Shown in pieces: positions 20,806 through 56,793 of a stretch of DNA of 64,000 nt. Both the position numbers and the translations under genes were made by a program. Below the pieces are notes generated by a model. That model was given only the letters and a program-made list of their open reading frames with translations, did no database searches and was not told where the DNA came from. The DNA lies in assembly GCA_033549025.1 (NCBI GenBank), contig JAWSUS010000008.1:32001-96000 (forward strand). The letters are read 5' to 3'. This DNA comes from Desulfuromonadales bacterium. Lineage in GTDB: Bacteria > Desulfobacterota > Desulfuromonadia > Desulfuromonadales > SZUA-540. Every line of letters begins with the position of its first letter. Position 1 is the first letter of the stretch.

Positions 20806-20829
20806 GGGACGCCTCCGTTTTCTGCCTGG

Positions 20830-20860
20830 TTACTTACCGGAAGCGCTGGCGATGTGTCGG
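20830..20860 (-). promoter_or_regulatory. Phage promoter motif upstream of the tail operon
   Basis: CCGAC-N15-CCGGTAAGTAA. Confidence 0.8.
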
Positions 20861-20864
20861 AGGC

Positions 20865-26168: not shown

Positions 26169-26221
26169 CGTCTCCGGTCAGTTTGCTGTGCTCTCCGCGA
26201 CCTGCGGGGAGCGTTCAGCGG

Positions 26222-26252
26222 TTACTTACCGGAAGCGTCGGCGATGTGTCGG
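26222..26252 (-). promoter_or_regulatory. Phage promoter motif upstream of the MTase-protease/capsid operon
   Basis: CCGAC-N15-CCGGTAAGTAA. Confidence 0.8.
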
Positions 26253-26268
26253 AGGGTGACGGTGAATT

Positions 26269-26622: not shown

Positions 26623-27131
26623 GACCAGTCCTCTGCGATCCGGAGATGTTCGGCCAGAAGCTGGTCGTCGATCCGGCGGAATCTCTCGGCGTTCTTCTTC
26701 CTGTAGGAGATCCAGCGTTGCCAATCCGCCGCGAGTTCGGGCTCCGAGACCGGCTCGATCATTTCGACATGGTGAATGCGGCCCAGGTCGTCGGTCAGAT
26801 CGACAATCAGCCACCCTTCGGCCGTCTTACCGTCATGTTCGGCTGTCAGTGTGTCTTCGACCCGGACATCCACCACCTTGACGGTGTGGGCGTGCTGGAA
26901 GCCCTCGTCGTAGCCGAGCGCCTTCCACAACAGCCAGAAATCGGTGCGCAGATGGTTGCCAGCGGCGTCGAAATGGGGGGCGATCCGGGTGACGGTGAAG
27001 CTGTCCACCAGGGTATCCAGAAAGAGATCCCCGGATTCTCTGACCGTCATGCGGCTGCCCCGGCTGTTGAACCAGTGCAGCGATTCTTGCAGCCGCCGTT
27101 TTTCCTGCTCGATAAAGTCCTTCATGGTCAT
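26619..27131 (-). CDS. Hypothetical protein, candidate MuF immunity/accessory
   Basis: ATG 27131 overlaps the MuF stop (ATGA); 170 aa. Confidence 0.6.
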   Translation of the reverse strand: MTMKDFIEQEKRRLQESLHWFNSRGSRMTVRESGDLFLDTLVDSFTVTRIAPHFDAAGNHLRTDFWLLWKALGYDEGFQHAHTVKVVDVRVEDTLTAEHDGKTAEGWLIVDLTDDLGRIHHVEMIEPVSEPELAADWQRWISYRKKNAERFRRIDDQLLAEHLRIAEDWS

Positions 27132-30100
27132 TGTTTGCGTTTGCTCCAGCTTTGCGGGGTATGGACGATGTCCTCCACCTTGCGCCCGTCGGGCAGTTTC
27201 TTGATGCCGCGCCGGGTGAAACTCTGGATGATCTCCCGGCGTTCGTTGTCGCTTCTGGCCACGATGAACTCGATGTTGTCCAGTAGCGTCACCGAGTATT
27301 TGAAGATGGTCTCGTTGCCATGGCGCTGCGAGAACCGCTTCCAATCATCGATGCTGGCTCCCCGGTTGCGCTGCACGTAGTCGTCAATCACCTTGCCGTA
27401 GGCGTCATGGTCATAGCTGATGGCGTCCATGCGCCGCAGCATCTGTTTCTTGAAGTAGAGGGCCGGTGAGGCGTCGCTGGCCGGTTGCTTCTTGATTCGG
27501 GTGAAGAAATAGCTCGCGCCGCCGGTCTGCATGTCGGCCACCGGGGACATTCCGCCCGGAGCCACGCCCATGCGCATCTTCTCGACCGTGCTGACCATGG
27601 CTCCGTTGTTCTCCATGATCAAGTCGATGAAGCCGGACATGCTCTCGCCGTTGGTCAGATCGTGGACCAGCGAATAGCCCTTCATCTGTTTTTCCAGCTC
27701 CTCATCGGTGATGTCGAACCGGAACTGGTGCCGGTATCCGCCCTTGGCGTCGCGGTCCAGAAAACCCGCCTGGTATTCGCCCAGCGGGTTGTATCCGGAA
27801 AGCTGGGTGATGTCCTGAACTCCCAGTTCCTTTTGCCAATAGCCGCGCAGAGCCTGGACCCGCTCGGTGGTGGTGGCATTGCGGTCGTCGAGGGATTTCT
27901 GCAGTCGTTTGTAGTCGGCGCTCTTGTCGGTCTTGCGGATGTAGGCGAGCTTTTCGAGATACATCTGCTCGGCGTTTTCCGCCGTGGCCACCCGGGTATC
28001 GATCCCAAGCTGTTCGAGCTTTTCCAGCATCGCCTCGACCCGTCCAGGGGTGGCGTCGCCGTCCAGGATCATTTCCAGCTCGCCGCGCTGGGCATAGAGG
28101 TTGGTGTCGGACCAGGGGCGATAGCGGACCCGGGTGCCGTCCTCGAAGGTGACGGTGTACTGGTGCCCGTCCTGCATGCGGGAGTTGTGATTGAACAGCG
28201 TCCGGTTGTCGATGTCGTCGGCCTCGACGGTAATGGTGCCGGACCCGATCCTGCGCTTGGTATGGGTCACCTTGCCACGTTCCACCTTGAACGGCGGTTT
28301 CTCCTTGGGTTTCTGCGCGTCGAGCTTGGGCAAGTACTGATCGAATACGCCGTTGGTGGCCCGGTCCCAGTCGACGGACTCTTCGATCTCCTTGACCCAT
28401 TTCAGATAGTGGTCCGCCATCTCCTTGACCTTGGGGTCGGCGCTCTTTTGCAGGGTCTCCAGTTTCTTGCGCAGGCGCAGGGCCTTGTCGATCTTGGTCC
28501 GGTTGTACTTGCCGTCGCCCACGTGGAAGTTGACGTTTTTGACGGCGTCCAGAATCGTCGGAAAGAAGCTGTCTTCGACCAGCGGTTGTCCCTTTTCCCC
28601 GGCCGCCGTCTGCACATACCTGCGCAGCACCTCGTCGATGCGGCGATCAGTGTCCGGCCGGATCTTCATCTTGACCACGGTGCGCTTCTTCCCCTTGAAG
28701 CTCTCGGTGAAGATCAGCGCGTTCTGGTCCTCCACGTCGCCGCTGTCGAAGGGCAGCGTCTTGCCCTGCCAGCCGAGTTTGCGGGCCTCCTCGACCAGGG
28801 TCTCTTCGGCGGAGGAGAGCAACTTTTTCTTCCCGGTGGCGGCGCTCAGCTTGTCGAAACGGAAGCCCCGATCCCCCAGCACATCGGCGTAATAGCCTTC
28901 GAAGTCCCGCCTGAGATTGTGTTTCCGCTCCAAGACCAGATCATAGAAATGCCGCAGCCCGGCCGGGTCCTTGGAAAACCGTCCCTCGGCGTAGGGCCGC
29001 AGCAGATCGAGGTAATCCTCGTCGGCGATCTTTTCGACTTCCTGGATGTAGCGAAAGGTCGGGTTCGGATCGACCCGTACCTTCCCTTCCTTGGCCGCCC
29101 GGAAGACCTTGTTGTAAAACGGCTCTTCCTCGCCGCAGACACCGTTGGGGTGATAGTCGAGCGAGAGCTTGTCCTGCCCCAGAAACTTGAATGCCTGGCC
29201 TTTGTCGATGCCGTAGACGCGACCGTCCCGGGCGCGGATGAACTGCTTGGAATGTCCGTCGTGGTTGGCGATCAGCCAGTCGACCACATGCTCGCGCTGG
29301 ATCTGCTCCAGTTCGATGGTGGTCAGATCCTGGGGCAGGATGTTGCGAAAATCGAAGTCGTCCCGCAGATCGGTGCGCCATTTCTGGATGGAGCCGGTGC
29401 GGCCGTTCAATTGGATGGTGCGCACCTCGATGGAATGGGGGTCGATCAGGCGGCCAATCTTGTAGGCTGCTTCCTCTCCGAAGGCGATGAACTCATCGTC
29501 CTTGCGGCCAACGGGCTTGAACAGCCATTTGTCGCCGTTTTCGTCGGTCCAGAACTCCTTTTCATGTGCGCCGCCGACAGCGGCCTTGCCGGTTTTCTTG
29601 AATTTTGACGGCAGACCTTTCTGCTGCCACGCTGAATCGACTGTGGCGAACTCCGCGCCTTTCTTGCCGATCTTGGCCTCGGGCGGCTTGACCGGGCTCG
29701 GCTGTGGAGCCGGTTTCGGCGGATCTTTCTTCGGCGTGGCGGGCTTGGCAGGAGCGGTTTTCTTCTTGCCGCCATGCTTTTCGGCCCAGGCGGCGTGCTT
29801 GGTGTCGATGCTGGCCTGAACCGCCTTGATTTTCGCGGGATCGGTCTCGGTGAAGAGCGTGGTCAGCTCGTCTTTGTTGGCCCACTGCCAATACTGGACC
29901 TTGGTCTCCTTGGCGAGCGTCTTGAGTTCCGTCGATTTCAGCTTGCCGACCTGGTCCTGGAAGAGCTGTTTCTTGAGGGCGATTTCCTTGCTGTGGGCTG
30001 CAAGCAGATCCTGGGGCAGATCGGTGCCGCCGGAAACCGCCTGTTCCGCCTTGGCAATCGCGTCGAGGAAATCCTTGTAGCCGGTTGGCGTGTCGGGAAC

Positions 30101-31717
30101 GACCACGGCCTTGGCGGCGTCTTCGAGGGCCGTTTTCTGTTTCAGGATCAACTTCTGCTTGGCCTCGTCGACCGCCTTTTTCTTGACCGACTCGGCCATG
30201 TCGGCACCGGCCTTCTTCTGCAGCGCCTCGACGAGCTGCTGTTTGTTCTTGAGGATGCCGATGCCGTGCTTCTGTTTGGCCGCCGCGAGTTCCTTGCCCA
30301 TCAGGCCGCTGTGGTCCACACCGGGCTCCAGCTTATCCAGCAGCTCGATGGTCTCCTGTTTGGTCATGTTGAGGGAGATGCCGTTCTCCTTCGCCATCTC
30401 CTTGAGCTGCTGGGCAGTCATGCCCCCCAGCCCCTCGGCGGGAGGGATCTTCGCCATCTGGGCGGCGAGCAGCTTGGCCTGTTTGAGTTCCGCCTGCTTC
30501 AGTCCGAGCAGCTCGACCAGTTCTTCCTTGGTCCGCAGCAGACCGATCTTATGTTCCTTGAGCTTGGCGCTGAGCGCCGCTCCGGCCAGGTCGCCGTGAT
30601 CGATCCCGGGTTCGGCCAGATCGAGCAACTTGATGAAATCGGCCTTGGTCCGGGCGATGGCCACGCCGTTCTGTTTCGCCAGGGTCTGGAGCTGTTTGAC
30701 CGTCAGCGAGCCGAGGTCGGCGATGTCGCCGTTTTCAAAGGCGCTCTTGAGCTTGGCATTCTCCTTGGCTTGGGCGTCGGCCATGCCTTCCAGTACGTGG
30801 GGCGGGAGAATGCAGGCGTCCCCCTGAGATGCCTGTGCGGCTGCCTTGGCGGCCATCTCGCTGCCGCAGACGGTCATCGGCCAAGCCACGATATTTGTGC
30901 AGCGGCAGTGCGGATGCGCGGGTTGCTGGGGGAACTTGTCGATTAGAAAGATCTTGCCGTCCAGGCCGCCGCAGACCGGGCACATGCGCTCGTCCTCCAT
31001 GGCCAGCCATTCCAGCTTCTGGATGCCGACCCGCTCGTGGAACTTGAGCCTGCCCATGTTGTGGGCGCGGAGGACCTCGGTGCGGGCGATCATCTCCATG
31101 CGGTACTGCGCCTTGCTGAACACCCGGCTTCCGGCCTGACGAAAGGAATCCTTGTCGATGATCACCTTGCCCATGTCCCGGACGATGTCGTCGGCTCCCT
31201 TGCCCGTGGCGACGCCGTTCAGGATGGTGCGCTTGATGCCGTCTGCGAGTTCGCGGTGGACGTCACCGGCGAGCGTGAGGTTGTACTGAGCCATGAAGTC
31301 GAGGGCGTTGGTGTCGACAATGGTGAACACATTGGTGGCCAACTTGTCGATGCCCTCGGGCTTCAGGTCGGCGTAGAACGGCAGCGCCGCGTCGGCGAGC
31401 TCTCCGATTCCCTGCTGGATGCCGAGCTTGAAGGAGTCCTTGGTCGTCTTGCGAAAGACCAGGGTCTGCTCCCGCTTGAGCCGCTTCATGGTGTCGTCGA
31501 GTTCGAGCTGGAGCTTTTCCAGCCCCTTGAGCGCGGCGAGCTTGTTGTCCGGCAGGGAGCCGAGGGAGCGGTACTGGAGAATGGCGCGGGCGACCTCGTC
31601 TTCGGCCTGTTTCAGCGCCTGGGTGAGCTGGGCCGTGACCTGGTCGTTGTAGCGGTTGCGGGCCGTCAGGCTTTTCAGGGTGGCGACCTGGATGCGCTGC
31701 TTGAGGTCCGATGGCAT
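27128..31717 (-). CDS. MuF/SPP1 gp7 minor head protein fused to helical repeats, a kinase-like domain and a C-terminal enzymatic domain
   Basis: IARTE...CPVCGGLDG...PAHPHCRC; WLFKP, DWLIANHDGH, IDKGQAF; 1529 aa; follows portal. Confidence 0.85.
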   Translation of the reverse strand: MPSDLKQRIQVATLKSLTARNRYNDQVTAQLTQALKQAEDEVARAILQYRSLGSLPDNKLAALKGLEKLQLELDDTMKRLKREQTLVFRKTTKDSFKLGIQQGIGELADAALPFYADLKPEGIDKLATNVFTIVDTNALDFMAQYNLTLAGDVHRELADGIKRTILNGVATGKGADDIVRDMGKVIIDKDSFRQAGSRVFSKAQYRMEMIARTEVLRAHNMGRLKFHERVGIQKLEWLAMEDERMCPVCGGLDGKIFLIDKFPQQPAHPHCRCTNIVAWPMTVCGSEMAAKAAAQASQGDACILPPHVLEGMADAQAKENAKLKSAFENGDIADLGSLTVKQLQTLAKQNGVAIARTKADFIKLLDLAEPGIDHGDLAGAALSAKLKEHKIGLLRTKEELVELLGLKQAELKQAKLLAAQMAKIPPAEGLGGMTAQQLKEMAKENGISLNMTKQETIELLDKLEPGVDHSGLMGKELAAAKQKHGIGILKNKQQLVEALQKKAGADMAESVKKKAVDEAKQKLILKQKTALEDAAKAVVVPDTPTGYKDFLDAIAKAEQAVSGGTDLPQDLLAAHSKEIALKKQLFQDQVGKLKSTELKTLAKETKVQYWQWANKDELTTLFTETDPAKIKAVQASIDTKHAAWAEKHGGKKKTAPAKPATPKKDPPKPAPQPSPVKPPEAKIGKKGAEFATVDSAWQQKGLPSKFKKTGKAAVGGAHEKEFWTDENGDKWLFKPVGRKDDEFIAFGEEAAYKIGRLIDPHSIEVRTIQLNGRTGSIQKWRTDLRDDFDFRNILPQDLTTIELEQIQREHVVDWLIANHDGHSKQFIRARDGRVYGIDKGQAFKFLGQDKLSLDYHPNGVCGEEEPFYNKVFRAAKEGKVRVDPNPTFRYIQEVEKIADEDYLDLLRPYAEGRFSKDPAGLRHFYDLVLERKHNLRRDFEGYYADVLGDRGFRFDKLSAATGKKKLLSSAEETLVEEARKLGWQGKTLPFDSGDVEDQNALIFTESFKGKKRTVVKMKIRPDTDRRIDEVLRRYVQTAAGEKGQPLVEDSFFPTILDAVKNVNFHVGDGKYNRTKIDKALRLRKKLETLQKSADPKVKEMADHYLKWVKEIEESVDWDRATNGVFDQYLPKLDAQKPKEKPPFKVERGKVTHTKRRIGSGTITVEADDIDNRTLFNHNSRMQDGHQYTVTFEDGTRVRYRPWSDTNLYAQRGELEMILDGDATPGRVEAMLEKLEQLGIDTRVATAENAEQMYLEKLAYIRKTDKSADYKRLQKSLDDRNATTTERVQALRGYWQKELGVQDITQLSGYNPLGEYQAGFLDRDAKGGYRHQFRFDITDEELEKQMKGYSLVHDLTNGESMSGFIDLIMENNGAMVSTVEKMRMGVAPGGMSPVADMQTGGASYFFTRIKKQPASDASPALYFKKQMLRRMDAISYDHDAYGKVIDDYVQRNRGASIDDWKRFSQRHGNETIFKYSVTLLDNIEFIVARSDNERREIIQSFTRRGIKKLPDGRKVEDIVHTPQSWSKRKQ

Positions 31718-48492: not shown

Positions 48493-49077
48493 TCACAGGT
48501 AGTCCTCGAGCCCGGCCTCGCGGAATGCGTCCCGCAGCTTGCCCAGCCGGTCGTAGAGGGTGGTTCTGGGGATGCCCATCTCCCGGGCGATTTCGGCCAT
48601 GGTGCTGTCGTGCAGGCGCACGCACAGATCCCGGAGCTCTTCCGGAAGCGAGGCGATGGCCCGGTCGAGATCCATGCGGATCTCATGGGCGAGGCGCTCC
48701 CTTGTTTCGCGGGTGCCGCCTCCCAGAGAGCCCTCGCTATCTAGGAAGTCGATCCGCTCGGTGGTGTCGCCTTCGCCGTTGTCGAGGGGTTCGTTGAGCG
48801 AGGTTTGGCAGAGCCGCCAGTCCCGGCATTGGGCGAACCGTGCCTCCAGAATGGTGGAGATGTGACGTTCGACGATCCGGGCCATGAAGGTGGTCTTCTT
48901 GGCCTTGGCGGGATTGAAATGCCGCATCCGCTGCAGCAGATCGATCATCAGTTCCTGTTCGAGGTCGGGTCTGTCGTCCTCGGTGAATCCGGCCTTGCCT
49001 ACGAGTTGACGTGCTTTGTGCCGAATGAGGTCGGCGGCATACTTGTCGATGCCGTCGTAAGAATTCTGTGAAACCAT
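48493..49077 (-). CDS. Phage-encoded sigma-70/ECF-like sigma factor
   Basis: Region 2-like DLEQELMIDLL..FNPAK...TF; region 4-like DLDRAIASLPEELR...MAEIAREMGIPRTTLYDRL. Confidence 0.85.
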   Translation of the reverse strand: MVSQNSYDGIDKYAADLIRHKARQLVGKAGFTEDDRPDLEQELMIDLLQRMRHFNPAKAKKTTFMARIVERHISTILEARFAQCRDWRLCQTSLNEPLDNGEGDTTERIDFLDSEGSLGGGTRETRERLAHEIRMDLDRAIASLPEELRDLCVRLHDSTMAEIAREMGIPRTTLYDRLGKLRDAFREAGLEDYL

Positions 49078-49272
49078 CGGGGCCTCCTCGGAGCGAGGAG
49101 GAGGTCCGCGTGGGTGTCGGCACGGGCCAGATCACAGGACAAAGCTGTCGCGTGGGCGAAGGGGTCGCAGGTACGCCGCCAATTGCCGTATTCGGCTCGG
49201 CGACACCCACAACAGCCTCCGCCATGCGTCCAGCTTGTTGTCCAGTGTCTAAGGGTTCAGGTCGTTACGTGT

Positions 49273-49599
49273 TCAGGCTGCCCGTTCCTCGATGCGCATC
49301 AGGAACGGGAGACCGTGCTTGATCTCGAGCAGGCAGACTTTTCCGCTGCCCATCTGCGCGAGGTGCTCCAGCAGCGCCACGACCTCTTGCTTGAGGATGA
49401 AGTCATCCTGGTCGCGCTCGGGCCGGGGACCGCTCTGTCCGCCCAGCTTGATCTCGCGCTCGATGACCGTGTCAGGGGTGAGTTCCGGTTCGCCGTCGCG
49501 GATCGGAATGTTGGTGATGCGGCCGAAGTTGATGTCCTGCATCAACTCGATGAGTCGCCGCTTCGGTGGGGTGAGGTGTGCTTTGTTGACTTGTGCCAC
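49273..49599 (-). CDS. Hypothetical protein
   Basis: 108 aa, AAGGAG RBS with GTG start. Confidence 0.7.
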   Translation of the reverse strand: MAQVNKAHLTPPKRRLIELMQDINFGRITNIPIRDGEPELTPDTVIEREIKLGGQSGPRPERDQDDFILKQEVVALLEHLAQMGSGKVCLLEIKHGLPFLMRIEERAA

Positions 49600-49657
49600 T
49601 GCCAGTCTCCTTGTTCGGAAGTTCTGGCACGCCCGGTGGCCAACCCTGTGCTGACCA

Positions 49658-49708
49658 ATAAAAAACGCCGGATCGCGCCTTCATTGGGGAAGGCGCTACA
49701 TCCGGCGT
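49658..49708 (-). terminator. Intrinsic terminator/attenuator between the QueC-like gene and the sigma operon
   Basis: ACGCCGGAT..GCGCCTT / AAGGCGC..ATCCGGCGT stem followed by TTTTTTATT on the minus strand. Confidence 0.65.
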
Positions 49709-49772
49709 CGCAATGGCTACATTTGGCGTAGCGGAAATTTTTTTTAGTTTTTTCTTCCTGGGTGGTCCCGGG

Positions 49773-51875
49773 TCATTCGTTGACTATCGGACGGACCTCC
49801 CAAACGATCTCCTCTTCGGTCCGGTAGACCGGTTCGTTGCCGCACTTGATGGATTCCTTCAGGTGGGCAGCCAGCGGCTTGTCGTACTTCTCAAGATACT
49901 TGATGGCCCGGTTTACGGCGTTCCGGAAGGCGTCACGGACGTTCTTTCGCTTGTCGTTGGATTTCCGGAGTTTGCCACCCAAGCCAACAGCCTCGTTGAT
50001 CGCTGTGGTCACCTTTGCCATTTCTTCTTCAAGCCGCTGAATCTCGGCATCGTTGTTTTCTGCCCGTGCGTCTTCAATTTCTCGAAGAAGATCGTGAGCC
50101 GCCTCCCGGTACTGCTCGATAGCCTTGCGGTCGGCGACGAAGCCGGTATCGCCCAACGGAACCCCCTGGGTGACCTGAAAACCGTCTTCGGTTTCATCAG
50201 AGTTCAGAAACGTGTTGCAGGTATTGATGGCGAACCCGCAGACGATCTCGTAGACCGAGGTTTCCTTGTTCGGCCTTGCCAGGAGGAAATTGATGTACTC
50301 GGCCCCTTTATCAACACCCGTCACGAGCACTTCGGCGTTGCCGTTAAAGCGTGCAGCCCAGACACCCCCGCGCTTCCTGAAGTAGTTGTCCGGCTGATTC
50401 TGCTCAACCGGAATGGCGGGGACGGAGATTACCGATCCCGATTCATAGACCGTCCTGAGCAGGCAGTCTCCCGGCAAGGTTCGTTGGCGAATGGCGGTGA
50501 TGTTACGGCCAACCATGGTGTCCATTGCATCGCAGACCTCCTTGGCGTGGCGCTTGTAAAGATCATAAACCTTTTGTGCCACTCTTCCGGAGTTCCCATT
50601 AAGGTAGCGGAAGACCCGACTGACCTCGCTGAATCGGGCGATAAACTGGGTGATGTCGTCCTGCTCGCGTACCTGATTGGCACGCTCCAGGTACGCGGCT
50701 GTCATGATCTTGTCTTCATCCTTGCTTCTGCTTTGGGTGAAGATATCGGCCTTATAGGCTTCCACGGGGTCATGCTGATCCGCTTTTGCCGCAATCATGG
50801 CAAAACGCCTGTCGATGCACTGCGAACACGTTCCGCAATGCGTATGGTGATTGGTCATCTCCCAGGTATGGGTGCAGGTGGTCGATGCCGCGATCATGTC
50901 CTGGCATCCGGCCTTGGTGATCACCTCGATGACACCGGCCTTGGTTTTCCAGATGTAGGGATTCTCAATCGTGAACGGTTCGCCAGCCACCAGGCTGATG
51001 ATTTCCTGAAAGCCTCGGATCACCCTGGGGTGGGTGGTGCGTGTTGCCCGGCCTCCGACTACCTGAGCGCAGACCGGCAGATTCAAACTGATGACCCCGT
51101 TTTCGTAAAAACGGACGCTTTTCAGATTGAGCATTTTTGCGATGGTCGCCCCGATAGACACATAGAGGAAGGATCGGCTGCGCTGGGTGTACTCGTAGTT
51201 CAGTCCCTTGTTCTTGTTGACCCGGACGCCGATGTGTAGCGGGGCGTTTTCCCCAGCCTTGTCGGCAATCATCTTTTCCAGTCGCCGGTGGCGCGTGTTG
51301 AGCTTCGGTGTCGACTTGTGGGTAACAAGGACGACCTTGTGTTTTTCATTCAGAACTTCATCGATGGCTCCCGCCAGCGAGTCCAGCCCACCTGAAAACA
51401 TCACTACCTGTTCCGGATAGCCGAAGAGCCGTCCGTCATCATCAAATTTCAGATATCCCTGGAATGCCTGAGCCTCTTTCAGTTTGACGAACTCGAAGTG
51501 ATAGTTGTCATCAGACAAGAAACCAAGCGTGGAGCGCAGCGCCTGGTGGATATCGTCTCCGTTCCAAAAATCTGGCTTCCGCACCGGGATGATGAAGTGC
51601 AGATCCCTGCGCCAGCCATGGCCAAAAGAATCGACGTCGTCGGCCCCTCGTGGGATGGCCTGATCGGCACTGTAAACGTAGGTGGCGATTTCGAGCAGGT
51701 CCTGGAAAGAATCAGGCACGTCCTTGCTCATCTTTTTGTGGATGTCTTCAATGCGTAGGGTGATCTTGTCCGGCCCATCCTTGCCCCAAAGGCGCAGGCG
51801 CAGATCACGGTCAGGATTTTCTTCAATCCCATCGGTCGGTGCGTTCCCACAGATGATATATCGTTTATCTTGCAT
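49773..51875 (-). CDS. QueC/QatC-like PP-loop protein fused to C-terminal winged-helix domain
   Basis: MFSGGLDSL, QRSRSFLY, TRTTHP, NPY..TK, TC, HCGTCSQCIDRR. Confidence 0.85.
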   Translation of the reverse strand: MQDKRYIICGNAPTDGIEENPDRDLRLRLWGKDGPDKITLRIEDIHKKMSKDVPDSFQDLLEIATYVYSADQAIPRGADDVDSFGHGWRRDLHFIIPVRKPDFWNGDDIHQALRSTLGFLSDDNYHFEFVKLKEAQAFQGYLKFDDDGRLFGYPEQVVMFSGGLDSLAGAIDEVLNEKHKVVLVTHKSTPKLNTRHRRLEKMIADKAGENAPLHIGVRVNKNKGLNYEYTQRSRSFLYVSIGATIAKMLNLKSVRFYENGVISLNLPVCAQVVGGRATRTTHPRVIRGFQEIISLVAGEPFTIENPYIWKTKAGVIEVITKAGCQDMIAASTTCTHTWEMTNHHTHCGTCSQCIDRRFAMIAAKADQHDPVEAYKADIFTQSRSKDEDKIMTAAYLERANQVREQDDITQFIARFSEVSRVFRYLNGNSGRVAQKVYDLYKRHAKEVCDAMDTMVGRNITAIRQRTLPGDCLLRTVYESGSVISVPAIPVEQNQPDNYFRKRGGVWAARFNGNAEVLVTGVDKGAEYINFLLARPNKETSVYEIVCGFAINTCNTFLNSDETEDGFQVTQGVPLGDTGFVADRKAIEQYREAAHDLLREIEDARAENNDAEIQRLEEEMAKVTTAINEAVGLGGKLRKSNDKRKNVRDAFRNAVNRAIKYLEKYDKPLAAHLKESIKCGNEPVYRTEEEIVWEVRPIVNE

Positions 51876-52653
51876 CGGCTCGCGCTCCTTCTTTTAGCTC
51901 GTCCTTCATCTTTTTCAGCGCGTAAGAGGCGAAGCCATTGGAAGACTCCCTGGAGATGTCACCACCTTCTTCGTACCTGTGCTTCGAAAACCAATCTGCT
52001 GAAAACTGCTCGACGATCAGGGACGCCTCTTTACAGTGCGTGTTCAGAGCCTTCTCGAATTGTCCCATTTCATTCATGGTGGCAAAGCGCTGGCCCTCGC
52101 CCAGATGGGTAGCCAGCGTTTTTGAGAGGAAGTAGTTCATGCTCTCGTTGGTCAGCTTGGCGAAGAAAGTCCGCGACAGCTCTCCGAACTCCCGCTTTTT
52201 CCCGAGCGCTGCCAGTGCGGCCCGAACATCATCTGGCCCGGGGGCGAAGAGAGACGGCAGTTTGGGTGAGATGTGCTCTACCAGGGCTCCGACCAATGCA
52301 CGCTGAGACATTTCACCGAGGTCGGATCGGCCACCGTTGGACTCCAATTTGTTATCCAGGGCCTCGGAGACTGCGGCTGCAAGATCGGGAAGGGATGTAT
52401 CCTGCGGCAGGTTGACGCCGAGGGATTGGAGATGCTCGCCGAGGTTCTCCTTTTTTGCGGCAATGGCGAGTTGCGTCATCAACCAGACCGCCTCGGTGAA
52501 CCCCTCATCGTTGAGCACGAAGGTGAATGCTTTATCGGCTGCCCGGATTGTTGCGTTTGCGATTTGGGACACGTCGGCACCGGCCGTGATCAGGCCGACC
52601 ACCTCTTTCCATGCCCTCGACCTCGGAAGGCTTCCAAGTCTGACGTGCCCCAT
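51865..52653 (-). CDS. QatB-like helical partner protein
   Basis: Overlaps the QueC-like gene start; begins MGHVRLG; helical; assignment from context. Confidence 0.55.
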   Translation of the reverse strand: MGHVRLGSLPRSRAWKEVVGLITAGADVSQIANATIRAADKAFTFVLNDEGFTEAVWLMTQLAIAAKKENLGEHLQSLGVNLPQDTSLPDLAAAVSEALDNKLESNGGRSDLGEMSQRALVGALVEHISPKLPSLFAPGPDDVRAALAALGKKREFGELSRTFFAKLTNESMNYFLSKTLATHLGEGQRFATMNEMGQFEKALNTHCKEASLIVEQFSADWFSKHRYEEGGDISRESSNGFASYALKKMKDELKEGARADAR

Positions 52654-52686
52654 GTCGATCTCCTTATTTTTCGCGACCCAGCATCG

Positions 52687-52920
52687 TTATTCGGGCCTCC
52701 TGATGACGACGATGCTTCGGGCCTTACGAGCTTCTTTCTTCAGATAGCCTTTCCGTACCAGTTGAGCGATCTGCTCGTGGGCGCTCGCGTGGCTGATACC
52801 AAGGACTTCCGACAATTCCTTCACCGTTGGCGGCAACCCCTTTTCATCGATGATTTGGCAAATGACCCTCAGCGTGTTTGCTTGTGGGTCGGTTATTTCC
52901 GATACCTTTTTCTTTCCCAT
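52687..52920 (-). CDS. LexA-type winged-HTH repressor lacking the peptidase domain
   Basis: TDPQ...GLPPTVKELSEVLGIS.ASAHEQIAQLVRKGYL....KARSI; 77 aa. Confidence 0.85.
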   Translation of the reverse strand: MGKKKVSEITDPQANTLRVICQIIDEKGLPPTVKELSEVLGISHASAHEQIAQLVRKGYLKKEARKARSIVVIRRPE

Positions 52921-52983
52921 GGCGATTGCTCCGTGTCGTAGCCACTGAGCGGATTAAGCCCAATTTATGACCACAAAATATAC

Positions 52984-53003
52984 GACCTGATGAACATCAG
53001 GTC
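52984..53003. promoter_or_regulatory. Perfect palindrome, candidate operator
   Basis: GACCTGATG-AA-CATCAGGTC in the divergent intergenic region. Confidence 0.7.
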
Positions 53004-53033
53004 AATCAAAAAAACAGGACTTCTCGTCTGATT

Positions 53034-53064
53034 CCGTCATCTTGCACGTCCCTCCGGTAGGTAA
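53034..53064 (+). promoter_or_regulatory. Phage promoter motif variant facing the recombinase operon
   Basis: CCGTC-N15-CCGGTAGGTAA. Confidence 0.65.
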
Positions 53065-53493
53065 CGAACGCAAGTCCGGTTCAAGCCGGATGTAACCAGA
53101 TAACCGACCAGAGGCGGAGCTGAGGCGGTTGTGGGTGCCATAGAACGCGCATCCCGACCGCCACCGTTTTCTGGCATCCACACCATCCAGTCCCCCGGTC
53201 CCACCGGAGGTGTTCGATGTTGGATGTCCAGGAAATGAATGATGGGCCGGGGATGGATGACCTTGGCGAAAACGGCAAACCCGGCCGCTTGTCGGGTGAG
53301 GCGAGGCTCCAGTCAGCCGCTTCCATTCTGGCCACGGCGATCCTGCGCCGAAAGGCAAAAAACGCATGTGTGGGCAATGAGTTAGATGCTTTCGAAGATT
53401 CTTCCCCTGTGCTCGGAGAAGGACTTGATTCATTGCCGGAACAGAGCATTCATTCATGACAACTCGTCCGGAAAACAAAATAAGGAGTTGAAA

Positions 53494-54018
53494 ATGAATG
53501 AGTTACAGAACGCCGCCACCGGCGGCAAGAATCAGGACCGAACCCGAAACTCGGTCCTTCGGCAGATGGCCCTGCTGCAATCCATGTCCCTGGAGCAGCT
53601 CCGGGAAAAATGGCTCGACCTCTACGGAGAAGAGCCGCCCCAGTACAAAAAGCAATTCCTCATCAAGCGGCTGGCTTATCGCATCCAGGAGCTTTTCTAC
53701 GGCGGGCTGTCCGAGCAGGCCAAGGTCCATCTTCAGCAGGCCGCTAAGGAGGACCCGGTCGCCACTGTCAATCGACGCATCCCAGAGGAGCGGAAATCGA
53801 ACGAGGCGATCCTGCCCGGGACCAGACTAGTGCGGATCTGGAACGACCGGCGCTATGAGGTGATCGTCCTTGCCGATGGCTACGAGTTCGAAGGTCGCAC
53901 ATTCCGGTCGCTCAGCGCGGTGGCCAGGGAGATCACCGGGACGCGCTGGAACGGCAAAGTCTTTTTCGGGCTGAAGAAGGTTTACGGCAGAAAAGCCGAG
54001 GGAGGTTCGGATGCTTGA
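53494..54018 (+). CDS. DUF2924-family protein
   Basis: LAYRIQE..YGGL, PGTRLVRIW, SLSAVAREITGTRWNG..FFGL; AAGGAG RBS. Confidence 0.88.
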   Translation: MNELQNAATGGKNQDRTRNSVLRQMALLQSMSLEQLREKWLDLYGEEPPQYKKQFLIKRLAYRIQELFYGGLSEQAKVHLQQAAKEDPVATVNRRIPEERKSNEAILPGTRLVRIWNDRRYEVIVLADGYEFEGRTFRSLSAVAREITGTRWNGKVFFGLKKVYGRKAEGGSDA

Positions 54019-55597
54019 TAACAGCAATGTCGCGCCGGGCAAGAACAAGACCCTGCGCTGCGCCATTTACACACGCAAGAGTCATGAGGAAGGACTCGAA
54101 CAGGAGTTCAACTCGTTGGATGCGCAACGGGAATCGGCGGAACACTATATCGAAGCCCAGAGGATGCGGGGCTGGACGGCTCTGCCGGATCGCTATGACG
54201 ATGGTGGTTTCTCGGGCGGGAACATGGAGCGTCCGGGGCTACGCCGCCTGCTGGCGGATATAGACGCCGGGAAGATCGATGTGATCGTCGTCTACAAGGT
54301 CGACCGCCTGTCCCGCTCGCTGCTGGACTTCATGAAGATGATCGACCTCTTCAACGAAAAGGGCGTCAGCTTCGTCTCGGTCACCCAGCACTTCAGCACC
54401 ACCGATCCCACCGGCCGGATGTTTCTCGGCATCCTGATTACCTTCGCCCAGTACGAGCGGGAGGTCATCGCCGAACGTATCCGGGACAAGGTGGCGGCAG
54501 CCAAGCGCCGGGGAAAATACTGCGGCGGCGTGCCCATCCTCGGATACGACGTCGACCGGGATAACAAGAAGCTGCTGGTCAACCCGGATGAAGCCAGGAC
54601 GGTGCAGTACATCTTCCGCCGCTTCATCCAGATCGGCTCGGCCAAGAAGCTGGGCCAGGAATTGAACGAACAGGGGTACCGCACCAAGGCCTGGACCACC
54701 AAGAAAGGCAAGGTGCGCGAGGGCTCCGAATGGAACACCGCCCACATCTACCGGCTGCTCAACAACCGGATCTATATCGGCGAGATCGCCCACAAGGACC
54801 GCAGCTACCCCGGCGAGCACGAAGGGATCATCGACCGGGCGACCTGGGACAAGGTTCAGGCCATCCTGGAGGACAACAAACCGGTCAAGGTATCCATGGC
54901 CAGAACCAAAATGGTCGCCCCGCTGAAGGGTGTCATCCGCTGCGGCCACTGCGGCTGCTCGATGGGACCGACCTACGCCCGCAAGAACGGCCGCCACTAC
55001 ACCTATTACATCTGCCAGAAGGACAGCAAGCGGACCGTGAGCCGGTGCCCGCTCAAGCGGATTCCTGCCGGGGATATCGAGCAGGCCGTGGTCGAGCAGT
55101 TGAGCGCGGTGTTCCGCACACCGACGCTGGTGGCCAAAACTTACTTCGCGGCTCGGGACATTGAGCAGGTGGAGCGGGAGCGGCTGTTCAAGCAAAAAGC
55201 CCAACTCGAGATGGAGCTATCACAAGCGCGGGAGCAGGCACTTGAACTGATGAAACCCGGCAACGATCAGCCGGGCAAATCCGAGATGCTGACGACCGTC
55301 AACCGTCAGGCGGTCGAGCTCTCGAAACAACTGACCCATGTGAGCGAGCGCTGCAGAGCCTACCAGGGGAACAGCATCACGGAACAGGATGTGTCGGAGG
55401 CCTTCCAAAATGTCGAGGGCTTCTGGGAAGACCTTTTCCCGGTGGAGCGGAATCGCCTCATCCGCCTCCTGGTGGACAAGGTGGAGATCCGCGAGACTGG
55501 AATCGACATGGAGCTGCGCACCAACGGGCTGACAACGCTCATCGCCGAGCTGGCCGGTCTGGCATGCGAAGTCACTGAACGGAGAGCAAGCCGATGA
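54011..55597 (+). CDS. Large serine recombinase
   Basis: CAIYTRKS, YDDGGFSG, DRLSRS, recombinase domain, CGHC zinc ribbon. Confidence 0.95.
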   Translation: MLDNSNVAPGKNKTLRCAIYTRKSHEEGLEQEFNSLDAQRESAEHYIEAQRMRGWTALPDRYDDGGFSGGNMERPGLRRLLADIDAGKIDVIVVYKVDRLSRSLLDFMKMIDLFNEKGVSFVSVTQHFSTTDPTGRMFLGILITFAQYEREVIAERIRDKVAAAKRRGKYCGGVPILGYDVDRDNKKLLVNPDEARTVQYIFRRFIQIGSAKKLGQELNEQGYRTKAWTTKKGKVREGSEWNTAHIYRLLNNRIYIGEIAHKDRSYPGEHEGIIDRATWDKVQAILEDNKPVKVSMARTKMVAPLKGVIRCGHCGCSMGPTYARKNGRHYTYYICQKDSKRTVSRCPLKRIPAGDIEQAVVEQLSAVFRTPTLVAKTYFAARDIEQVERERLFKQKAQLEMELSQAREQALELMKPGNDQPGKSEMLTTVNRQAVELSKQLTHVSERCRAYQGNSITEQDVSEAFQNVEGFWEDLFPVERNRLIRLLVDKVEIRETGIDMELRTNGLTTLIAELAGLACEVTERRASR

Positions 55598-56016
55598 AAA
55601 TGAAGCCGACCATTACCGTAGCCGACAACGGCAACCTGCAGATCCACATCCCGATGCTGATCCGGCGCATGCGTGGCCGCAAGACGGTCATCGCGCCCCA
55701 GGCCCTGGACGGAGCGATCTCTGGTGCGCAGGAGCCGGTGCAGTCCGCCGTCCTCCAGGCACTGGCAAGGGCCTTTTCCTGGGCCGACATCCTCGAATCC
55801 GGCCAGATCAAGTCCATCAGCGAGCTTGCCCGTACCCTCGACGTCGATGGCTCGTATGTGGCCCGCATCCTCAAGCTGACGACTCTGGCCCCCGACATCG
55901 TAGAAGCCCTGATCAACGGCGAGGAACCCAACGGGCTCTCGCTGGCCAAGCTGACCCAGACCTTCCCTGAAGACTGGGTCGAGCAGCGCCGCCAGTTCGG
56001 CTTCGCCACCGACTGA
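55594..56016 (+). CDS. Recombinase-associated small HTH protein
   Basis: SISELAR...SYVARILKLTTLAPDIVEALING...W.EQR. Confidence 0.75.
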   Translation: MKMKPTITVADNGNLQIHIPMLIRRMRGRKTVIAPQALDGAISGAQEPVQSAVLQALARAFSWADILESGQIKSISELARTLDVDGSYVARILKLTTLAPDIVEALINGEEPNGLSLAKLTQTFPEDWVEQRRQFGFATD

Positions 56017-56437: not shown

Positions 56438-56793
56438 TGGTGGAGGTGGCGGGAATCGAACCCGCGTCCGAAAACCTTTCACGTAAGGCTTCTACATGCT
56501 TAGTCGGTGTTTTGAGTTTAACCCGGAACCGCTCCCACAGACAGGATTTGAACCGGGCGAGTCTGCTTTATTTCGCCTCTGCACCGCAGTCACTTGCAGA
56601 GACTAGCCCACTAAATTGACGTCTCAGACCCTACGCGGGCGATAAGGAAAGAGACGAGGCAGCAATTAAGCTGCCAGTGCGTACGAAACGTCAGAGTCGG
56701 CGTTTGTATTGTTGCCAGTTTTTTAACGAGGCCCACTGGCGTCCCCGGCATGCCACCTTCGCTTCCGATCCCCGTCGAAACCTTGACACCCCC
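56438..56793 (-). ncRNA. ssrA: tmRNA
   Basis: 5' GGGGGTGTCAAGGTTTCGAC, 3' GGTTCGATTCCCGCCACCTCCACCA, tag ORF ADSDVSYALAA*, downstream of smpB. Confidence 0.97.

Follow-up and report, generated by a model that had tools for sequence, protein, structure and literature searches.

What is a pair of proteins resembling the immune proteins QatB and QatC doing in the lysogeny-control position of a prophage? We addressed this question in a 64,000-nucleotide stretch from a Desulfuromonadales bacterium (GenBank GCA_033549025.1, contig JAWSUS010000008.1, positions 32,001 to 96,000), hereafter the window. Upstream of a sigma factor operon lie three co-oriented genes, as the initial annotation described, encoding proteins of 77, 262 and 700 amino acids (aa): a LexA-type helix-turn-helix (HTH) protein, a partner that we call B, and an enzyme that we call C, which ends in a domain that we call TAIL. 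The initial annotation offered two options, a minimal anti-phage module or a QatBC-like regulator. Exchange of the pair within its genomic slot, swappable protein ends and a palindrome that tracks TAIL strongly support the regulator. The defence option is weakened but keeps a small probability, because QatBC alone defends against lambda-vir (PMC13279940). We consider it reasonably probable that the cassette works as a QatBC-like switch and gates what is probably a positive regulator of the early genes of the prophage.

49773-50393, minus strand: C residues 495-700 (TAIL), putative and probable sequence-specific nucleic-acid-binding output domain, from model and homology
50394-51875, minus strand: C residues 1-494, QatC-like PP-loop enzyme with the N- and C-terminal extensions of QatC, from motifs, profiles and Foldseek
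51865-52653, minus strand: B, 262-aa all-helical QatB-fold protein, start MGHVRLG, short flexible tail, from a structural model

Motif and profile evidence identifies C as a QatC-like enzyme that retains the catalytic, zinc and Thr-x-Thr motifs. Its gene spans 49773-51875 and overlaps the stop of B. The SGGLDS and zinc motifs and all tail peptides quoted in the initial annotation are present in the sequence. C carries SGGLDS (PP-loop, S161-S166), RxRSFL, ENG, T278-R-T280-T-HP and a four-Cys zinc site (C334, C347, C350, C353); SGGLDS, the zinc cysteines and T278/T280 are invariant among 49 homologues. It also has the published QatC motifs DxxxxR..WxR, DxYxxxF, RxRxxL/F, ExG, T-x-T-T-HP and PxxxxTK (lists in PMC13329287 and PMC13279940). 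Residues 50-406 match QatC (PADLOC, E 2.5e-53), PDB sequence searches match 9vlk and 9zee, and the best Foldseek match of the C model is 9y01_B (E 2e-17 over 487 columns). C scores 206.5 bits (E 6e-61) on the NCBIfam QatC equivalog, below its cut-off of 280, and fails the canonical QueC model TIGR00364 (27.5 against 150.3 bits); the host has a separate canonical queC. A search of the wide VIA fold library with the C model did not list QatC, and INPHARED phages contained no full-length homologue of C.

B resembles QatB in fold and is predicted to dock its N terminus in the active site of C. The B model (mean predicted local distance difference test, pLDDT, 77, with low confidence confined to residues 1-26) aligns to QatB 9y02_A with Z 12.8 and root-mean-square deviation 3.8 over 193 of 211 residues, a Z near the caution level for helical proteins but at near-complete coverage; the next fold scores 6.8. 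Alignment to 9y01_A gives Z 10.7, and identity to the QatB structures is 9-10%. Searches of Pfam, PADLOC, NCBIfam, PHROGs and PDB sequences found no sequence family for B, and neither Foldseek nor the wide VIA library listed QatB, which emerged in a second-look alignment; one Atlas lead was PF28083, on 15% of a cluster (score 0.87). B homologues are widespread, with 1,563 clusters at 50% identity. The Met-Gly start pointed out in the initial annotation is present, and among 130 distant full-length relatives Gly2 is kept in 127 and His3 in 120; 114 begin MGH and 6 VGH or LGH, and the MGTS motif of QatB is absent. The predicted complex of B with C(1-490) scored 0.89 against 0.00 for the best control, passing a mark that 116 of 157 solved pairs reach, as do 2 of 215 mismatched pairs; contact agreement between runs was at least 80% and partner pLDDT at least 84. 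Among its interface residues are 2-8 of B and 262-280, 335 and 350-352 of C. This pass may reflect likeness to the solved QatBC. Modelling and profile comparison, the check proposed in the initial annotation, thus found both proteins related to their Qat counterparts, and B is the probable acceptor of the C reaction. Separately, B is 98-100% identical across records from Desulfosarcina, Geobacter, Desulfomicrobium, Oleidesulfovibrio and other genera (loci L017-L028, L041; L numbers are our locus handles), pointing to a very broad host range or to binning artefacts.

On these models the pair works like QatBC yet stands outside qatABCD, because QatA and QatD are missing, MGH replaces MGTS and the B tail is short. 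With QatB-QatC of qatABCD (PDB 9y01/9y02, 9vlk, 9zee; PMC13279940, PMC13376578, PMC13639016, PMC13329287), C shares the extensions, SGGxDS, Thr-x-Thr and the four-Cys zinc site, and B shares the fold, the conserved Gly2, a Pro/Trp motif near the N terminus and a predicted 1:1 complex with that terminus at the active site. The B tail has 12-25 residues, whereas that of QatB has 30-90 unstructured ones. Unlike QatC, C carries a fused 200-aa output domain, and its place is fixed, in a control slot of a prophage that also has a matching cis-element; QatC showed no binding of DNA or RNA (PMC13376578), whereas C has a putative nucleic-acid-binding TAIL. The initial annotation saw no QatA or QatD gene at the locus, and the KAP-NTPase and TatD matches of the genome indeed fall on other contigs; neither family occurs among 67 selected neighbour proteins of related loci.

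The chemistry of the known systems limits what can be carried over. QatB Gly2 and QatC S156/S161 and T278/T280 are essential, with Thr-x-Thr in place of the Tyr/Asp pocket, and PMC13279940 leaves the QatC reaction open. QatC made no use of 7-carboxy-7-deazaguanine (CDG) in the authors' assay (PMC13376578). Transfer of a deazaguanine to the N-terminal glycine of a partner, which the initial annotation ascribed to QatC and Cap9 alike, is described for Cap9 and unsettled for QatC (PMC13279940, PMC13376578); since the QatC papers leave that chemistry open, we confine the statement to Cap9. Type IV cyclic oligonucleotide-based antiphage signalling (CBASS) Cap9-CdnD resembles the scheme proposed for our pair, in that an enzyme of the QueC family acts on the N-terminal glycine of its partner and so forms a switch (PMC13279940, PMC13329287). 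Here, by comparison, there is no CD-NTase, Cap10 or effector, and T278/T280 replace the Tyr/Asp pocket for CDG.

The QatBC-like pair sits in an exchangeable slot. The cassette lies on the minus strand between a divergent flank of DUF2924 and serine integrase genes and an early operon of recombination and replication genes, in the order o108, extracytoplasmic function (ECF)-type sigma factor, exonuclease, Sak4-like AAA, SSB, ERCC4 nuclease, RecD and primase.

48493-49077, minus strand: ECF-type sigma factor gene, from profile matches
49273-49599, minus strand: o108, conserved 108-aa protein, first gene of the presumed target operon and survey anchor
53386-56016, plus strand: DUF2924, large serine integrase and 140-aa recombinase-associated gene, divergent, the other slot flank

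A synteny survey, which the initial annotation had suggested, found exchange with an unrelated module that we call X-Y. The o108 anchor search returned 29 viral loci, 26 of them close sisters (sigma factor 92-100% identical and integrase, where present, 94-99%). In these 26 the slot holds LexA-HTH, B and C+TAIL (13 loci), a Y-type protein with TAIL (2) or X-Y with another end (11). The 11 X-Y sisters have a 388-aa X and Y behind a full 207-aa LexA with S24 peptidase wherever upstream DNA is intact, and the 2 Y-type proteins end in the tail of C (30% identity, profile E about 1e-40). A wider survey took the best 80 of 157 viral and the best 80 of at least 491 metagenome matches to o108. The gene directly upstream was classifiable in 103 of these 160 loci, the other 57 being contig ends, other layouts or unclassified, and the 103 fall into 35 clusters at 70% identity. 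Nineteen carry TAIL (9 Y+TAIL, 6 C+TAIL, 4 unclassified+TAIL) and 16 do not (2 C+Trans_reg_C, 1 Y+Trans_reg_C, 8 Y+Yc114, 5 Y+other). The last slot gene always ends in a swappable domain, be it TAIL, OmpR-type Trans_reg_C or another HTH: the QatC-like L122 and the Y protein L123 have closely similar OmpR-type ends, both above the Pfam cut-off, and other Y ends gave weak Rrf2 and HTH_3 matches below it. Input and output parts are thus freely recombined, an architecture typical of regulators. By these comparisons the QatBC-like pair is an exchangeable input module that would have taken the place of X-Y.

The slot also holds modules of interest in their own right. X (about 390 aa) and Y (zinc-ribbon-like N terminus, swappable HTH-type end) are the commoner occupant, belong to no Pfam or PADLOC family and form a prophage regulatory module (pairs at L102:3772-6196, L114:3772-5995, L123:810-3032). 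Further input modules lie at L188:1121-5788, L199:2916-5858, L200:3328-5731 and L206:1185-3495, one with a sigma-54 activator end and the others HTH-like. In one sister prophage a MarR regulator and an ArsP-type permease (L110:2846-4224) replace the LexA gene before X-Y. Loose contig ends of run X8 (window 49585, 49683, 52816) match Y+Yc114 and Y+TAIL leaders, so several slot alleles coexist in one community sample.

TAIL is common to C, to the unrelated Y proteins of the same slot and to chromosomal AAA, TPR and receiver proteins. Its model has three strands, two helices, a low-confidence loop and helical hairpin, two more helices and a beta-hairpin. In the host phylum TAIL occurs in 12 of 401 genomes, in some cases at the C terminus of AAA_16, TPR, receiver-cyclase and hydrolase proteins. 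The initial annotation likened the tail to the winged-helix C terminus of AAA-type regulators; its place at the end of AAA_16 and TPR proteins agrees, and its identity as a winged helix is weakly supported. Profile-profile comparison with host OmpR profiles gave P 6e-4 to 1.7e-3, with seven controls at P of at least 0.08; to the disadvantage of our reading, the probability is only 15-29% and the match covers 36-37 columns in the first half, with the recognition helix outside. Like the OmpR/PhoB winged helix (Trans_reg_C, PF00486), TAIL holds the same position on sister proteins, and its strand-helix-helix start aligns in register. Unlike it, TAIL has an insertion of about 85 residues, a recognition helix with no detectable match and no Pfam Trans_reg_C match, and it accompanies palindromes where Trans_reg_C of OmpR type accompanies 11-bp direct repeats. 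Searches of PDB sequences, Pfam, Atlas and viral folds gave TAIL helical-hairpin or unnamed matches only; the fold searches took the whole 700-aa C model as query and barely probed TAIL, and two homologue searches with TAIL returned mostly C proteins and fragments. The chromosomal TAIL proteins (L298-L311), which include an alpha/beta-hydrolase type and number up to three per genome, mark an unannotated signalling output domain.

A tandem palindrome before the early operon co-occurs with TAIL. The two boxes lie in the leader between the TAIL gene and o108, which is conserved between C+TAIL and Y+TAIL alleles and different in Y+Yc114 alleles.

49695-49732, minus strand: GCTAC-N7-GTAGC (49716-49732) and GCGAC-N7-GTAGC (49695-49711), 21 base pairs (bp) apart, putative and probable TAIL sites

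At a score of at least 16 the pair is unique in the window. A tandem box precedes o108 in 17 of 19 TAIL clusters (C 6/6, Y 9/9, unclassified 2/4) and in none of the 16 others. Loci with Trans_reg_C have repeats of 11-12 bp period in place of the box. The box also stays with its operon when the cassette moves: in a displaced layout of beta- and gammaproteobacterial elements, with the cassette about 6 kb off beyond the integrase and pointing away, 19 of 25 loci have it at the head of the early operon, whose first gene there encodes an excisionase-like HTH (recognised by eye). Scanning viral contigs for the pattern yielded at least 120 matches, 80 with flanks; 44 of the 80 carry family markers, 33 of these have TAIL (14 non-adjacent), and the remaining 11 have less than 3.6 kb of upstream sequence. 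Among 11 loci found later with a B profile, the box accompanies all 3 with intact C+TAIL and none of the 5 with C without TAIL; two more are broken or cut, and one deleted derivative has TAIL without the box. In 400 other genomes of the host phylum the strict pattern does not occur. We think it likely that TAIL regulates the o108 leader in some way.

Several observations weigh against so direct a pairing of TAIL and box. Spacings of 21-22 alone cover 13 of 19 TAIL clusters, and 17 of 19 is reached with spacing 20, added after inspection. TAIL loci were the source of the box score, and related loci are not independent, so the counts are partly circular and a Fisher P of 4e-8 overstates the association. 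The box is missing from 6 of the 25 displaced-layout loci and from L473. Of the 80 box-anchored viral loci, 36 have neither a family marker nor a TAIL match, so motifs of this class also occur apart from TAIL; several of the marker-less ones are in-frame coding repeats or iteron-like arrays. The host genome itself has a second copy inside a Mu-like prophage, probably in coding sequence.

These points bear on an explanation in which the boxes are iteron-like replication or recombination sites of another phage protein and the link to TAIL is shared descent. Similar 21-22 bp palindrome arrays are indeed found within phage genes and on small replicons of unrelated kinds. However, sisters whose flanks are 94-99% identical have or lack the box by their tail alone, and the link holds in both the o108-sigma and the excisionase-headed layouts; we regard this explanation as very improbable. 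Two kinds of similar array stand on their own. In Mu-like prophages (G000:C1:13933-13970; L328, L379, L387, L388) the tandem palindrome is apparently a coding 7-codon repeat, where cross-talk or coincidence is possible. Small (mostly 4-6 kb) GC-rich 'viral' contigs (L319, L325, L334, L337, L340, L345, L347, L349, L357, L377, L383) share 22-bp-period palindrome arrays resembling replication iterons.

The second box overlaps a terminator-like hairpin, which raises the question of whether TAIL acts on DNA or on RNA.

49660-49707, minus strand: intrinsic-terminator-like hairpin with T6, its 5' arm the centre of box 2, from sequence, fold and a compensatory change in L074

The stem is too long for listing by the promoter and terminator scan. 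This putative terminator would keep transcripts of the cassette from running on into the early operon. TAIL could act on the same leader as an RNA-binding antiterminator in the manner of ANTAR regulators, with two hairpins of which the second competes with the terminator, or as an AlpA- or Q-like factor that is loaded from the DNA site onto polymerase. The overlap and its compensatory change in L074 suit such a role, as do innermost box pairs that are mostly G-U (38 of 68 distinct boxes) or Watson-Crick. In both layouts a co-oriented gene immediately precedes the boxes, and no conserved -10 element is evident downstream of them. The G-U pairs and the overlap fit an RNA switch, and with the lack of a -10 element they count against our preferred reading. 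AlpA is a precedent for DNA recognition combined with terminator bypass (PMC7969949).

A DNA site is favoured by the arms. Of 31 non-Watson-Crick positions in the 5-bp arms only 2 are G-U, the other 29 being A-C or other non-wobble mismatches, and arm changes are often compensatory. Over 57 distinct regions, chosen for high palindrome score, the box spacing is 21 in 45, 22 in 7 and 20 in 5, held at two helical turns. In L184 the terminator-like hairpin lies upstream of the boxes (by eye), and the alternative slot ends are DNA-binding families. We judge an antiterminator of this sort unlikely, noting that its DNA-loaded form overlaps with our preferred explanation. Three modes are compatible with the leader: an activator with its transcript start within the terminator, an antiterminator loaded from DNA, or one that binds RNA. 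A CCT-N10-AGG element right after box 2 was considered as a second LexA site and rejected: its spacer varies between 9 and 10 and it occurs in loci without LexA, so we read it by eye as the inner hairpin of the terminator.

The cassette is headed by a LexA DNA-binding domain that lacks the cleavable half of LexA.

52687-52920, minus strand: 77-aa LexA DNA-binding domain without S24 autopeptidase (PF01726, E 5e-13)
52977-53005, minus strand: promoter-like TTGACC-17-TATATT of the LexA-B-C operon
52983-53004, minus strand: palindrome TGACCTGAT-N4-ATCAGGTC overlapping this promoter

Sister prophages encode a full 207-aa LexA, 62-63% identical to the 77-aa protein over the HTH. As the initial annotation noted, the window has no full LexA or CI repressor with a peptidase domain: an S24 profile run over the whole genome gives matches on two contigs, neither of which carries the window. 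The promoter palindrome is kept ahead of LexA genes of both kinds, full-length and HTH-only, in elements of Desulfobacterota and betaproteobacteria, and is probably an autoregulatory operator of the LexA-type HTH. Counting all loci, redundancy included, B-C modules have an HTH-only LexA in 97, a full one in 2, none recognised in 28 and a contig edge in 10; X-Y modules have a full LexA in 56, an XRE/IrrE-type pair in 6, none in 26, an edge in 5 and an HTH-only form in 0. Three Acidobacteria B-C loci (L036-L038) retain full LexA, and 17 of 23 B-C and 15 of 24 X-Y cluster assignments have no recognised repressor, both of which tell against a tidy link between B-C and loss of cleavage. A strict rule that B-C never has a cleavable LexA is rejected by L036-L038, and the HTH-only form may be a single event.

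The repressors that head these operons speak to the sign of TAIL. Could TAIL be the lysogeny repressor itself, sitting on twin operators over the early promoter and inactivated by the QatBC-like reaction? Phased tandem palindromes with co-varying arms (GCTAC, GCCAC, GTTAC and GCGAC types) do resemble immunity-type operators, and the window holds no complete CI. But the X-Y alleles keep their tail gene in an operon headed by RecA-cleavable LexA or beside an XRE/IrrE-type pair, so damage would raise TAIL there, as fits a positive factor, and no sigma-70 consensus promoter overlaps the boxes. A repressor role seems to us quite improbable. Given the damage-responsive repressors at the head of the X-Y operon, a positive output is the simplest assumption for it.

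Relatives of C that end in a nuclease connect the pair to defence. Three distant MGH-type pairs (L470, L471, L475), which lack the o108-sigma and DUF2924 genes of the prophage family, have at their end a DpnII-MboI nuclease domain that scores above the Pfam cut-off. The pair of L467 ends in a DUF6262-like HTH below the cut-off, and that of L468, inside the prophage family, ends in an unassigned HTH-like stretch before a sigma gene. On this evidence the C terminus of the QatC branch is an output socket, taking a nuclease in likely defence loci and a probable DNA-binding domain in prophage slots. The nuclease fusions (L470:4872-7711, L471:4641-7309, L475:5986-8645), with no QatA or QatD noted, are also candidates for a compact defence system. 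Literature searches, made in main texts and with few subscription papers covered, found no paper on a QatC that is fused to a nuclease or DNA-binding domain; QatB/QatC alignments in supplements could include fused proteins.

The same relatives favour reading the cassette as a minimal QatBC-like anti-phage moron whose tail is autoregulatory or a passenger, or in which prophage induction is the defence output. Two further facts point that way and weigh against a purely regulatory role. QatBC by itself suffices against lambda-vir, as cited above, and B-C often lies beside restriction-modification, Hma or Septu-like cargo, such defence cargo flanking many loci. GC content falls to 55% over the cassette, against about 62% nearby. 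Set against the moron, non-QueC Y proteins also have TAIL and the boxes, the boxes stand at the early operon instead of the cassette promoter and remain there when the cassette moves, and the other slot occupants have no PADLOC match. We rate the moron as unlikely, if still worth keeping in mind.

Our preferred reading, the switch that gates early genes, can be set out as a sequence of steps. The cassette would form the induction-control slot of a large temperate-phage family, with the LexA-type HTH keeping the LexA-B-C operon low. B and the QatC-like enzyme are predicted to form a complex with the N-terminal Gly of B in the ATP/zinc site. Upon a signal, C would adenylate a first substrate, probably not CDG, and ligate it to Gly2 of B, as the PP-loop family and the QatBC papers suggest. 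The complex would then change, TAIL would bind the two phased palindromes and the o108-sigma-recombination-replication operon would come on, either by promoter activation at box 2 or by passage of polymerase through the overlapping terminator. B-C would have replaced X-Y, in most lineages with loss of the RecA-cleavable peptidase, leaving an induction route that does not need SOS. More tentatively, and with real room for doubt, a QatBC-type immune sensor may have been co-opted as the induction trigger, such that phage attack or a stress sensed by QatBC leads to modification of B and licenses TAIL.

Other prophages and mobile elements place positive regulators similarly. SXT SetR-SetCD and ANTAR regulators are comparable repressor-headed or damage-responsive positive regulators near terminators. 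The input here is a QatBC-like or X-Y pair, which sets the cassette apart from Pseudomonas aeruginosa AlpA. AlpA shares with it a repressor-headed or damage-responsive positive regulator gene and a DNA site near a terminator before the target operon, a likeness of arrangement (PMC7969949). SOS-independent modules of a transcription factor and a small open reading frame likewise provide a prophage-borne sensory transcription factor and a route to lysis apart from DNA damage (PMC10432266). In those modules a small antirepressor inactivates CI. Here an enzyme-substrate pair serves as the sensor, and the apparent target is an early operon that includes a sigma factor or an excisionase; the likeness is one of description.

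The surrounding DNA is that of a tailed prophage, with terminase, portal, sheath, tape measure and primase genes, adjoining a transfer-messenger RNA (tmRNA) gene at 56438-56793. No clean attachment-site repeat was found, a 26-nucleotide tmRNA-like match on the same contig being inverted, and an Rfam search of 48900-53500 gave no match. In the late region a 36-bp sequence is duplicated at 94% identity (26220-26255 and 20828-20863), a possible late-promoter element. At 27128-31717 the window encodes a 1529-aa Mu-F-like head morphogenesis protein with a long extension that includes a weak endonuclease VII match.

The 2026 structure papers on QatBC state that the action of QatC, its trigger and the route from QatB modification to defence are open questions. 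With a probable transcription factor naturally fused to it and a site for that factor identified, the QatC-like enzyme would offer a direct read-out for the QatBC trigger, and the nuclease-fused relatives suggest that QatBC is a switch, not an effector. If our reading is right, QatBC would be a general sensor-switch with interchangeable outputs, the same MGH-type core driving a nuclease in defence loci. The boxes suggest a first candidate binding site for an unannotated domain that is also found at the end of chromosomal signalling proteins. The prophage family with this slot spans Desulfobacterota, Planctomycetota, Verrucomicrobiota and Pseudomonadota, and would possess an SOS-independent induction route and a control slot built of an X-Y or B-C input, a swappable output and a matching site. 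Should the sensor have been co-opted as we tentatively propose, attack by another phage would start excision and replication through modification of the B N terminus, and an immune-type sensor would decide the timing of phage induction.

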